From positions 1,408,001-1,472,000 of the forward strand of contig CP084167.1 of the NCBI GenBank assembly GCA_021513715.1: a stretch of DNA of 64,000 nucleotides, given 5' to 3'. Source of the stretch: Candidatus Heimdallarchaeum endolithica (GTDB lineage: Archaea > Asgardarchaeota > Heimdallarchaeia > Heimdallarchaeales > Heimdallarchaeaceae). Positions 38,868-58,310 of this stretch are shown here, one piece after another. The translations under genes and the position numbers were made by a program. The notes under the pieces were generated by a model that was given only the letters and a program-made list of their open reading frames with translations, was not told the origin of the DNA and ran no database searches. Positions within the stretch are counted from its first letter, which is position 1. Every line of letters begins with the position of its first letter.

Positions 38868-40478
38868 ATGAATACATTTGGTATAATTGTCAGTTATTTG
38901 AGGAAAGGAAGATTATTTTCAGTCTCTCCAAATACTGTTTTATTACCAAACGATATTTTATTATTGTCCATCAAGAGTAATATTCAACATTTATATTTTC
39001 AAGAATGGTTGAAAGACGAGAAATTAGTTATTAATATTATTTCACCTATTGGTACAATTGTTGATAGTTTAGATGTGGATCTTAAATATACTGGACTAGA
39101 AGAGTTTTATTCTTTTGAAGTATCTGAAAATCTTTATTCAGGTGTCTATATTTTATCAATTCAAGGTAAGAATACAAAAATTAAGAAAAAAATCACTATA
39201 AAAACAAAAAGGAAATTGATCAATCACTATATTCTTACTTATGGAACTGAAATTTGTAACACAAGCGAAGATAATATTACAGAGTTAATTGTTGATGTTG
39301 TAATTCCACCAAGCATAGCGCAATTTCAAGAAGTTCAAGGAATAAAATTTAGCTTTAAACCTATTGAGAAGAAATGTGACAAGGATGGAAATTGCTGGGC
39401 AAGATTTTATTTTCCAATAGTTTATCCAAATGAGAAGATAAATTTAGAATACAAGGCTCTAGTTACTACAAGGATTATAGGATATGATGTTACAAGAATA
39501 AAAACGATAAGAGAATTAGATGAGATAAGCTATGAATTTTTTGAGAGATATACTAGAGATGAACCTTTTATTGAAAGCGATGATATTTTAATAAAAAGAG
39601 TTACACACTCACTGAAATCAGAAAATCCAATTGATAAAGCAATTAATATTCTAAGTTACGTACAAAATAACATTAATTACAAACAAGAATTGGGTGACTT
39701 TGGTGCAAAATATGCAATAAGAGCAAAAAGAGGAGACTGCACAGAATTTGCAAGTTTGTTTGTAGGAATGTGTAGAGCCGCTAAAATTCCAGCAAGACTT
39801 GCGACAAGCTTAATAAAAGAAGAAGGTATAAAATGGGAAAAACATTCTTATGCTGAATTTTTTGCCAAAGGTATTTGGTGGCAAATAGACCCCACCCTAA
39901 ATACTGATAAACAATATTTGATAAGAAATCCAGAGAATATTGTATTATTAAGGGGAAATTCACTAGCTAAAACCCATATTAAAGAAATAAGGTATTCACA
40001 TTCAGATCTAAAAAAGAGAAAAGTAAGTTTCAAAATCCATTGGAAAGTTGATGAAGTAAAGAACTTCACCCAGAATAAAGAAAAAAACAGCCATATTTGG
40101 ACTAAACAAAGTAACATATTGCATGTAGAACAAAAAGAAGAAAGAAGAGACAGCATAAGTGAAAATAAAGAAAGTTTCATTTCAATAAATGTGCCTACTT
40201 TACCTGAAGTTTCTACTGGTTCAATCTATAAGGTTCCTGTAAGATTAATTAATAACTCATCATTGGAAATATCTGGAACATTAGTTGTTTCAATTAATCG
40301 CGGGGGAATATTTATCAGTCAGCTTTACCAAAGGACTATAAAAGCAAAGTCAAATATTGGTATTGTTGTTGATATTCCTGCTCAAAGTTATTTTGGCCCT
40401 GCAAAAATCGAATTTGTTTTTCAGGATAACACTGGTTTTATATTCTGCAAATCAGAAAAAAAGATTCAATTTCAATAG
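38868..40478 (+). CDS. Transglutaminase-like cysteine protease domain protein
   Basis: GDCTEFA.LF...CRA..IPAR, H.YAEF and W..IDPT (Cys-His-Asp triad intact). Confidence 0.9.
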   Translation: MNTFGIIVSYLRKGRLFSVSPNTVLLPNDILLLSIKSNIQHLYFQEWLKDEKLVINIISPIGTIVDSLDVDLKYTGLEEFYSFEVSENLYSGVYILSIQGKNTKIKKKITIKTKRKLINHYILTYGTEICNTSEDNITELIVDVVIPPSIAQFQEVQGIKFSFKPIEKKCDKDGNCWARFYFPIVYPNEKINLEYKALVTTRIIGYDVTRIKTIRELDEISYEFFERYTRDEPFIESDDILIKRVTHSLKSENPIDKAINILSYVQNNINYKQELGDFGAKYAIRAKRGDCTEFASLFVGMCRAAKIPARLATSLIKEEGIKWEKHSYAEFFAKGIWWQIDPTLNTDKQYLIRNPENIVLLRGNSLAKTHIKEIRYSHSDLKKRKVSFKIHWKVDEVKNFTQNKEKNSHIWTKQSNILHVEQKEERRDSISENKESFISINVPTLPEVSTGSIYKVPVRLINNSSLEISGTLVVSINRGGIFISQLYQRTIKAKSNIGIVVDIPAQSYFGPAKIEFVFQDNTGFIFCKSEKKIQFQ

Positions 40479-48041: not shown

Positions 48042-48485
48042 TTATATTTGGCCCCAAGAAATAAATTTTCCATCTTTTCTTTTAACTAAAACAGAACCAA
48101 ATTTTCTCCATTGTTCTTCTCTAAATCTAATAATTTGAAATTCATCTTGAGAAGATTTCATTTTTAGTTGGAGTAACTCTGCAAGAGAAAGTTTTTTCTC
48201 GTAAAAAAGTCGAGTAATGTATTTTCCCTCTCTATCTCCTAGACTGACCTCCTTTGCCAAATTTAATAAATGTAAAACAGGAAGGTTAGAAAATAAAGGT
48301 TGGTGAGAAGAGGTATATACTGAACCTGGACAAATAGATTCATTTTTGTATTCTTCAACACATTTTTTACAAAAAATTAATTGACACCCGTTACATATTT
48401 TCCACTCTTCAAGCACAGCCTCTTTTAATGAAGATTGATTTTTACAAAAAGCACATTTCACATAGAAATCTAAAATATTAGTCAC
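48042..48485 (-). CDS. RING/PHD-like Zn-finger protein (Nse1 RING-like)
   Basis: C11-x2-C14-x16-C31-x2-C34-x4-C39-x2-C42-x9-C52(P)-x8-H61; its GTG start overlaps the upstream TGA. Confidence 0.7.
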   Translation of the reverse strand: MTNILDFYVKCAFCKNQSSLKEAVLEEWKICNGCQLIFCKKCVEEYKNESICPGSVYTSSHQPLFSNLPVLHLLNLAKEVSLGDREGKYITRLFYEKKLSLAELLQLKMKSSQDEFQIIRFREEQWRKFGSVLVKRKDGKFISWGQI

Positions 48486-49060
48486 AGCTTTTCATACTCC
48501 TCTTTAATTTTTGTCCTTTCATCTTCATCAAACTCAAGGAGAGTTCTGTAATTGTAATCTATTAGATTTGATTTTCGTTTAATATATCCTTTATACGTGA
48601 GAGATCTTATGCTCTCACTTACAATATACTCTTTTAAATAGTCATTAGATGTTAAAAACTCTTTAATCTTTTTAGTTGTAATTTTTTTCCCTGATTCTCT
48701 TAAACCCACTATTATCCCTAAAACAATTAATTCTACCTCATTTAGTTCTGGAGGAGCGAAATAGTTTGATTTTAAGCACAACCAAGTTTCATTAACTATT
48801 TTGTAATTGACTAATTCCAACCCAAGAATAGAAATAAAAATCTTATATTCTTCTAAAATATTTTCGAGTGTTGCTATATCCACCCTAGTTACTATCAACA
48901 AACCTTGTTGAGATACACCAAAAACTTCTACATTATCTTTTATCCATCTTCTAGTTAATATTGTTGTTAGTTCCCTAAATAATTCTTGTTTCTCTTTATC
49001 TGTAATTAAAGGAGACAATTTTTGTTCTTTATCTGTAATTTCATTTTTCATTTCATTCAT
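48482..49060 (-). CDS. KITE (tandem winged-helix; Nse1/Nse3/ScpB-like) protein
   Basis: LENILEEY...ILGLELV (WH-A), LNEVELIVLGIIV and L..KGYI......Y..RTLLEF (WH-B); third gene of the SMC operon. Confidence 0.7.
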   Translation of the reverse strand: MNEMKNEITDKEQKLSPLITDKEKQELFRELTTILTRRWIKDNVEVFGVSQQGLLIVTRVDIATLENILEEYKIFISILGLELVNYKIVNETWLCLKSNYFAPPELNEVELIVLGIIVGLRESGKKITTKKIKEFLTSNDYLKEYIVSESIRSLTYKGYIKRKSNLIDYNYRTLLEFDEDERTKIKEEYEKL

Positions 49061-56620: not shown

Positions 56621-56820
56621 AGTTAATTTTTTGTACAATTTTCTCCTACTACGTCAGTGGAAGAATACAAACGCTAAAACAGATGTTTGAGCATACTGAC
56701 ATCATCTAGGAATCGTGGGACGCATAAAGAAGAGTAGAACTCTTCACTCCACGAGTACTAAGTATTCTACCATTATGGTATAATAGTACATAGGTCTATT
56801 TCAACCACTGGTTGAGACCC
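56621..56820 (-). ncRNA. Putative omegaRNA (reRNA) scaffold of TnpB
   Basis: Nested stems 3' of tnpB on the minus strand: TCAACC/GGTTGA, GTACTA/TAGTAC with TACCAT/ATGGTA, TCGTGG/CCACGA with GAAGAGT/ACTCTTC, and TCCTA/TAGGA with GTCAGT/ACTGAC; ends at the element boundary. Confidence 0.7.
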
Positions 56821-58310
56821 CGGAAGGAAGTATAAAAGGTGAGACTAAAGTGTTGTCCAGTAAGATAATCAACTAGTGTAGATGCTCGGGGACGAAAAAG
56901 AAAACGAAGAAACAATTTCCCGATGTTGATTGCACAGGTAAGGTCAGAGTGAAGAGTATAATGGCAATGAGAACAATAAACAAGACCTCTAACAGGTCGA
57001 ATAGTCTTTCGTCCACATTTTGAGCAAAGAGAAGAGGTAAGATATTCCTGTAAGGTGAGGATACGTTCGGGTTCTAACCCATTTAGAAGACACATTCGTC
57101 GAAGAAGAGTAACTATTTGGTAGTAATTCCACGGGTGAACCTTTTTACGAGTAAAACGGGTAGAGGAGTTCTGTGGTCTGTAGTCTTGATTCATTACTTT
57201 TTTTCTTAATTTCGAGTGTACTCCCTTGGGGTAACCAACAACAACGACTAAATTATAATCCTGTGTAAGTTCAACAATATCTTTCCACAACTCATTAATA
57301 AAAGCATATAAATAAGCATGAGAGAGCGTCTGATATCTTTTTCTTAATTTTTTTAATGTTTGATATCCTTTATTGCTTCTTTTGTCTTTACATGTATTCT
57401 TCTTTTTTGCAAGTTTTCGTTGCAATCTTCTTATTTTCTGTTGATAGATATACTTCCTTTTTTTCCATTCTTTCATTTTCCAGAAGAAAATATGATTGGG
57501 AGATATTTTACCTGTTGATGTTAATAACACTCCTGCTCCAGGTATTTTTTCTCCCAGATCTATTCCCAGCACAGCTGGAGGAAGAAGAGAAGGGTCAACT
57601 TTTTTTTTCTTGTAGAGATCTGCTTGAGGAATAATTGTTATCTGAAAATTTACCCACCAACTGTTTTTTTGTGAGTTATATTTTAATTCTAGACTTTTTA
57701 CTTGTCCTTTTCTTATTTCTTTTTGGTGATATTCACTCATTTCTAGTGGTATCCATAGTCTTCGATGTGTTCGTTTTTTTCTTTTTTGTGTGTCTAATGA
57801 GTCTCTTATCCCTACCCAGCAACGAGAAAGAGTGTTTTTCCCTTTAGGCAAATGTTCTATGATAAATCTATTTTTATTGATTAGTTGTTTTCTTGTTCGT
57901 TTTACTGGTGGTAAAATATATCCTTTTTTTCTTTTTCTATTCTTTTTTTTGTTATATCCTTGTTCATAAAGTTGTACTGCTACATCTCTACACTCTTGAA
58001 ATTCATCGTGAGAACAATTAGGAAACTTTTTTTTGAGATCATAGGGTACAACTGTCCTTTTTTTCTTATTTGTTTTCTTTGTTGTTGTTAGTGTTAGTTC
58101 ATCTAACTTGCCTTTATGCACTTTTAGTCTTATCTCTCCTTGTTTGCTTATTTTTCTTATTACTTTTTCTTCTTCTTTTCTTATTATTTTTACATATTCT
58201 TCTATTATTCTAGTATCTCTTCCTGTTATCTTTCTCATTCTATCTTTTTTGAACTTCGTTAATTTTTCTGTTTTTACTCTTACTCTTAATGTTCTCACTA
58301 TTTTCTCCAT
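56796..58310 (-). CDS. tnpB: RNA-guided endonuclease TnpB with rearranged RuvC-II
   Basis: RuvC-I VLGIDLG; RuvC-II position VVVGYP (no Glu); alternative Glu in QEYLTSSLCSKC; CSHC; RuvC-III HSD...AINI. Confidence 0.9.
   Translation of the reverse strand: MEKIVRTLRVRVKTEKLTKFKKDRMRKITGRDTRIIEEYVKIIRKEEEKVIRKISKQGEIRLKVHKGKLDELTLTTTKKTNKKKRTVVPYDLKKKFPNCSHDEFQECRDVAVQLYEQGYNKKKNRKRKKGYILPPVKRTRKQLINKNRFIIEHLPKGKNTLSRCWVGIRDSLDTQKRKKRTHRRLWIPLEMSEYHQKEIRKGQVKSLELKYNSQKNSWWVNFQITIIPQADLYKKKKVDPSLLPPAVLGIDLGEKIPGAGVLLTSTGKISPNHIFFWKMKEWKKRKYIYQQKIRRLQRKLAKKKNTCKDKRSNKGYQTLKKLRKRYQTLSHAYLYAFINELWKDIVELTQDYNLVVVVGYPKGVHSKLRKKVMNQDYRPQNSSTRFTRKKVHPWNYYQIVTLLRRMCLLNGLEPERILTLQEYLTSSLCSKCGRKTIRPVRGLVYCSHCHYTLHSDLTCAINIGKLFLRFLFRPRASTLVDYLTGQHFSLTFYTSFRGLNQWLK

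Follow-up and report, generated by a model that had tools for sequence, protein, structure and literature searches.

In this study, we identified a gene for a small two-zinc finger protein as the fourth member of an SMC operon in Candidatus Heimdallarchaeum endolithica, within a window of 64,000 nucleotides (contig CP084167.1, positions 1,408,001 to 1,472,000). We propose, at a probability of about 0.55, that the protein is a KITE-coupled accessory subunit of the RING superfamily in an Asgard SMC5/6-type complex, and that it was ancestrally a likely E3-like adaptor of a ubiquitin-like protein (Ubl) cascade; the binding, ligase activity and substrate considered below are predicted ones.

To our knowledge, Smc5/6 is the sole eukaryotic SMC complex with built-in ligases. 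The occurrence of a conserved RING-like fourth gene and its link to a Ubl cascade suggest that the coupling of SMC5/6 to protein tagging predates eukaryotes, which would hold even if another RING later took the place of the finger. The sequence-only reading that preceded this analysis had likewise tied an E3-like module to SMC5/6 before eukaryotes, a claim that is plausible and is backed by the linked Ubl cassette in relatives. The system is small and can be reconstituted, so the question is directly testable. An SMC5/6-related three-gene core of SMC, kleisin and kite has been published for archaea, with the RING described as absent from archaeal kites and as a eukaryotic innovation (van Hooff et al., 10.1101/2024.01.07.573240). 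The operon in the window shares this core and its gene order, but no fourth gene and no Ubl cassette were described for the published operons, unlike the present loci, and a literature search, mostly of papers outside subscription journals, returned no description of the fourth gene.

Table 1. Features of the SMC operon, with positions counted from the first nucleotide of the window.
Feature	Position	Strand	Remark
SMC with hinge, 992 aa	49748..52726	-	best PDB match Smc6
Kleisin candidate, 232 aa	49053..49751	-	by position and winged-helix-like end; without family match
KITE, 192 aa	48482..49060	-	tandem winged helix, Nse1/Nse3 type, without RING
Two-zinc finger gene, 147 aa	48042..48485	-	stand-alone, fourth in the SMC operon
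Cross-brace finger, residues 9-69	48279..48461	-	C11, C14, C31, C34, C39, C42, C52, H61 and invariant W28; RING/U-box/ZZ-like
C-terminal motif, residues 120-146	48048..48128	-	EExW..G.V..KR..GKF..W; predicted small beta-sheet
GTGA start/stop overlap	48482..48485	-	KITE stop / finger start
SD-like GAGGAG	48497..48502	-	11 nt upstream of the finger GTG start; from sequence only

A stand-alone gene behind the KITE

On the minus strand, four overlapping ORFs stand in a row, from the SMC through the kleisin candidate and the KITE to the finger (Table 1). The genome is a single 3.33-Mb contig. Its congener Ca. Heimdallarchaeum aukensis has a finger 86% identical to the one in the window. Judged by its best PDB matches, which are Smc6 (E 3.3e-12), the SMC is Smc6-like. 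The KITE was modelled as a confident tandem winged helix (AF2 pLDDT 88), its fold matches comprise both KITE chains of Nse1-Nse3-Nse4 together with ScpB (Z 11.7, 10.2 and 10.2, with 11.7 to 7dg2_C and 10.2 to NSE1 5hvq_C), and the Pfam families MAGE and SMC_Nse1 each match three KITE orthologues weakly; the KITE is thus of the Nse1/3 type, about equally close to Nse1 and Nse3 and with no preference for Nse1. The same type had been proposed from the sequence, and the fold and the weak Pfam matches, found in an Smc6-like operon, support it. The position between SMC and KITE is filled by a conserved gene whose 232-aa product, matching no family and nothing in the atlas search, is a kleisin candidate by that position and by its winged-helix-like end. 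Searches of this genome turned up neither ScpB nor another SMC operon, so the SMC5/6-type operon may be its only SMC-KITE system and its main chromosome organiser.

The KITE and the finger are real, separate genes. The two minus-strand ORFs (192 and 147 aa) share 48482-48485, which confirms the GTGA overlap reported from the sequence, and all motifs quoted along with it were found. The sequence-only reading had offered, as an alternative, that a single-base assembly error conceals an already fused Nse1-like gene. A 4-nt overlap is compatible with a single indel, but the identical -4 nt overlap recurs at the KITE/finger junction in all 26 Heimdallarchaeaceae loci listed, that is, in independent assemblies of the whole family, a gap of 20-38 nt takes its place outside this family, and the orthologues have their own open frames of 148-192 aa. 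When fused and split orthologues were compared across other Asgard genomes, all were split: 47 distinct SMC-kleisin-KITE-finger loci have the finger as its own ORF directly after the KITE, and none has it fused, so a frameshift is excluded and the hidden fusion is refuted, with a probability that is negligible. Finger homologues were mostly 131-152 aa long in a length-limited search; homologue searches without a length limit returned no KITE-finger fusion, and no ORF matched both profiles among the 231 finger-profile and 112 KITE-profile matches in all fetched sequences. Long finger homologues were considered as KITE fusions and rejected, one of them being a small-GTPase fusion. At L061:1504-2514, the same finger family lies at the C-terminus of a small GTPase-like protein.

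A finger homologue occurs in 45 of the 83 genomes of the class and in 66 of the 400 of the phylum (Asgard), and its conservation is not due to chance. The finger, the KITE clade and the SMC clade were found in the same eight families among the 400 Asgard genomes, including Heimdallarchaeaceae and Sifarchaeum; with these queries, the other large Asgard families gave none of the three. The sequence-only reading had named a finger unlinked to the SMC operon in other genomes as evidence against itself; the link is instead conserved, and the finger follows the KITE through rearrangements. The two genes remain paired, and divergent from SMC-kleisin, at three loci (L102, L108 and L110). In Hodarchaeales LC_3, the finger is HeimC3_51610 (gene number inferred by counting) on contig MDVS01000144, which is the contig cited for the generic Nse1-3-related kite of LC_3 (van Hooff et al., 10.1101/2024.01.07.573240). 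An ABC-transporter block now lies between KITE and finger in LC_3, and a 39-aa ORF directly before the finger (L106:9870-9989) duplicates the 3' end of the KITE, with 53 of 75 nt identical; this KITE copy is a trace of the insertion of the block between formerly adjacent genes. The KITE is absent nearby for a few finger homologues (L109 and L133-135, the latter from Planctomycetota). In a tree of the finger family, the base is unresolved and long-branch warnings apply.

Fold of the finger and comparison with Nse1 and Nse2

Finger residues 11-70 were predicted by AlphaFold with a pLDDT of about 90, and the model points to a cross-brace RING/U-box/ZZ-like fold with two zinc sites, a central hairpin and a helix (Z 4-5). 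Fold matches include RNF4 (Z 5.3, rmsd 2.5, 58 aligned), U-boxes (Z 4.7-5.1, with Prp19 at 4.9-5.1), ZZ domains (Z 3.9-4.2) and, as the best match of the wide search, an S. solfataricus 30S chain (Z 5.2) that is probably aS34. Each of the three fold searches also returned Nse2/Mms21 (3htk_C Z 4.4, 7qcd_C 4.1 and 7p47_A 3.9). The ZZ domains and the archaeal ribosomal protein lie within about 1 Z of the RINGs, and since the scores are middling and tied, the finger is assigned to the superfamily only; at this level, the RING-like character claimed earlier for the gene after the KITE stands by predicted fold. Compared with PHD, FYVE and B-box families, which had been raised as alternatives to a RING, the window finger fell far under every curated Pfam cut-off (best 15.7 bits), and its orthologues gave only scattered weak FYVE, B-box and IBR matches. 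The atlas search with the finger yielded leads only; PADLOC matched neither the finger nor the KITE nor the kleisin and thus points to no known defence system. Homologues at L103:537-1085 and L111:321-896 lack the ligands of one zinc site and have the C-terminal motif intact.

The ligand spacing of the finger is C11-x2-C14-x16-C31-x2-C34-x4-C39-x2-C42-x9-C52-x8-H61. Among 41 operon orthologues, C11, W28, C31, C34, C42, C52 and H61 are invariant, in agreement with the earlier choice of His61 as eighth ligand, and the last ligand pair is C-x7..9-H; the second ligand is variable (C, H, D and others), and the fifth is Cys in 33 and Asp in 8. Some finger homologues have Cys as eighth ligand, and some end in C-x4-C. 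Of the Nse1-like spacing that had been claimed, only the central CxxC-x4-CxxC was found, the first loop and the final two ligands being spaced differently.

Nse1 (NSMCE1) consists of a KITE and a C-terminal C4HC3 vRING, acts as an E3 with Ubc13/Mms2 and modifies the kleisin Nse4 (PMC8750328). As in the window, the complex is of the Smc5/6 type and a finger of the RING superfamily comes after a KITE, and the sequence-only reading took the finger for an unfused Nse1 RING, which would make it the direct ancestor of the Nse1 vRING through fusion of the neighbours and loss of the 80-residue tail behind the finger. The gene order equals the domain order of Nse1, a one-base change would fuse the two genes, the central ligand spacing is common to both, and Hodarchaeales LC_3 has the pair next to the generic Nse1/3-related KITE of van Hooff et al. 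However, Nse1 is one chain and is without the 80-aa tail, and the relatives of the window finger, unlike Nse1, are linked to a non-canonical Ubl cascade. Instead of the C4HC3 of Nse1 (PMC8750328), the finger family has C7H ligands, with Cys or Asp in fifth and His or Cys in eighth place; a C4HC3 pattern with terminal CxxC is absent, and the loops differ (16 residues in the first and 8 in the last). The zf-RING-like (Nse1) model PF08746 had no match in the window finger at E<=10 and gave a chance match only in a genome-wide search; Nse1 chains were also absent, which is a weak absence, among the best 50 fold matches and the 60 listed PDB sequence matches of the finger.

In another Asgard family (f14), an M48/SprT-like zinc protease carries a C-terminal C4HC3 RING (L067:1610-2347 and L068:10329-11033), and its genes are close to another operon, AAA-SMC-kleisin-kite. 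Used as a control, this RING matched PF08746 over its whole length (1-43; E 1.3e-4 and 2.2e-5, 22-25 bits) and also the human NSE1 RING 2ct0_A (E 0.0011), and by sequence it is a better candidate for the donor of the Nse1 RING than the window finger. The genome of the window itself has at least 6 further canonical RINGs, four of which exceed the zf-RING_2 cut-off, while the operon finger reaches 15.7 bits. Since the protease RING fits PF08746 and canonical RINGs are at hand in this genome, Asgard archaea seem to offer better donors for the Nse1 RING. A fused intermediate was found neither by homologue nor by profile searches, and the change would need several ligand and loop substitutions together with the loss of the best-conserved part of the protein, so the claim of an unfused Nse1 RING is not supported, and fusion of these neighbours into Nse1 is possible but not favoured, being unlikely in our estimate.

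The finger could also be related to the SP-RING SUMO ligase Nse2/Mms21, or be its forerunner, and bind the SMC arm. Nse2 is likewise a separate RING-fold subunit of Smc5/6, its chains recur in all three fold searches, it ends in C-x4-C as some finger homologues do, and the modifier linked to the finger is non-canonical. Against this, the Nse2 scores are tied with those of many unrelated RINGs, no sequence match was found and zf-Nse is not among the best 25 Pfam families; the domain order is reversed, with the arm-binding helices of Nse2 at the N-terminus, the finger has two zinc sites, and in rearranged loci it goes with the KITE and not with the SMC. Such a kinship is quite improbable. We regard the finger as probably an analogue of the Nse1/Nse2 ligase arm, a lineal ancestor of the Nse1 RING being unlikely. 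That the ligase arm of Smc5/6 was inherited from Asgard archaea, with the finger as lineal ancestor of either the Nse1 vRING or the Nse2 SP-RING and already the E3 of an SMC-modifying cascade, is a rather doubtful proposition.

The ubiquitin-like cassette and a proposed ancestral role of the finger

Four Asgard families and some Planctomycetota have JAB, E1, Ubl-like and E2-like genes in linkage with the finger. In family f7, it is followed contiguously by Prok-JAB, a ThiF E1, a Ubl (103-105 aa, ending in VG) and an E2-like gene, whose product has an invariant HPR...C motif; finger-JAB-E1 occurs in f8 and Sifarchaeum and finger-JAB in f6, and the cassette of f12 is found within about 10 kb, where a tail-less finger paralogue adjoins the E2-like gene. 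The Ubl was called from a weak YukD match (E 0.015) and context, and the E2-like protein from weak UQ_con and PDB E2 matches (E 0.008) and context. The E2-like gene was found in 32 of 400 Asgard genomes, only in finger-bearing families, and in none of the 31 genomes of Heimdallarchaeaceae nor in its two finger-bearing sister families. The Ubl and E2-like genes of the cassette were not found in the genome of the window, which has three ordinary E2-family genes and three ThiF genes. The cassette Ubl of L031:10118-11587 and L054:9752-11533 has a VG or VGx terminus, as Ufm1 does. Repeated RII/KII/VRIL strands that resemble SUMO-interacting motifs occur in the E2-like protein, in the finger paralogue and in a small acidic neighbour.

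Among 251 Planctomycetota genomes, 13 have the finger. In a Planctomycetes MAG, the order is SMC-kleisin-KITE-finger-(x)-JAB-E1, with the Ubl and E2-like genes elsewhere, and the module of this phylum was probably transferred from Asgard archaea. Planctomycetota loci of the type SMC-kleisin-KITE-finger-JAB-E1 are L127:6405-12670, L129:1094-2025 and L130-L132.

The linkage of the finger to JAB, E1, Ubl and E2-like genes in relatives argues for an ancestral E3-like role. We propose that an Asgard SMC5/6-type complex, with SMC, kleisin and KITE each probably as homodimers, has the finger as its fourth subunit, which is encoded separately and translationally coupled. The finger would most likely dock on KITE/kleisin through the conserved C-terminal motif, and most likely began as an E3-like adaptor of a private JAB/E1/Ubl/E2-like cascade, which by its gene linkage may tag the SMC complex or its clients. 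In Heimdallarchaeaceae, including this genome, the cascade was apparently lost and the subunit kept, and the finger may now be either structural or served by the ordinary E2s of the host.

The finger is followed by a conserved 80-residue tail, which the sequence-only reading left unmentioned. Its residues 120-146 are the best-conserved part of the protein, with a mean identity of 0.62 where the finger has 0.42. The motif in these residues is missing from paralogues outside SMC operons and is a putative docking element. The tail has no PDB match and belongs to no known family, and a complex prediction with KITE, kleisin and finger gave scores of 0.08, 0.40 and 0.21 against a mark of 0.32, which weighs neither way. 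A winged-helix copy of KITE or kleisin was considered for the tail and had no support (hhalign probability <1%).

The better conservation of the tail would also suit a non-enzymatic accessory subunit, that is, a zinc finger with a structural or a nucleic-acid/peptide-binding role, comparable to ZZ domains or aS34, with the paralogue as E3 of the cassette. Consistent with this, the best wide-search match is probably aS34, which with its small RING-like fold, two zinc sites, 7 Cys and one Trp (PMC11698992) resembles the finger, and the finger is conserved in Heimdallarchaeaceae without the cassette, which counts against its reading as cassette E3; from its position and sequence, the tail-less paralogue of f12 could be the real E3. 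On the other hand, aS34 is ribosomal and limited to Thermoprotei, with no sequence match to the finger found, and in f7, f8, Sifarchaeum and Planctomycetota it is the finger, rather than the paralogue, that JAB and E1 directly follow, so we consider a purely non-enzymatic subunit rather unlikely.

With regard to an ancestral E3-like adaptor, the E2-contact positions, which we take to be those of c-Cbl, are mixed: Pro follows C7 in 38 of 41 orthologues, and the linchpin Arg is absent. Helix position C6+4 is hydrophobic in 15 of 15 cassette-bearing sequences versus 10 of 23 of family f1, though kin are not independent in this count. Behind the sixth ligand, both helix positions carry hydrophobic residues in 14 of 15 cassette-bearing sequences versus 2 of 23 in Heimdallarchaeaceae, one of the two being that of the window. 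The helix positions are suggestive of decay after loss of the cassette, as a single phylogenetic contrast to which another E2-contact position runs opposite.

Two further genes of the window may be mentioned. A transglutaminase-like gene at 38868-40478, 8 kb from the SMC operon, is closest to the one flanking the cassette in f6, f7, f8 and f12 (E 2e-103), and is possibly a remnant of the cassette cluster. At 56796-58310, a 504-aa TnpB/Cas12f-like ORF shows, by eye, RuvC-like motifs and a C-terminal zinc ribbon.
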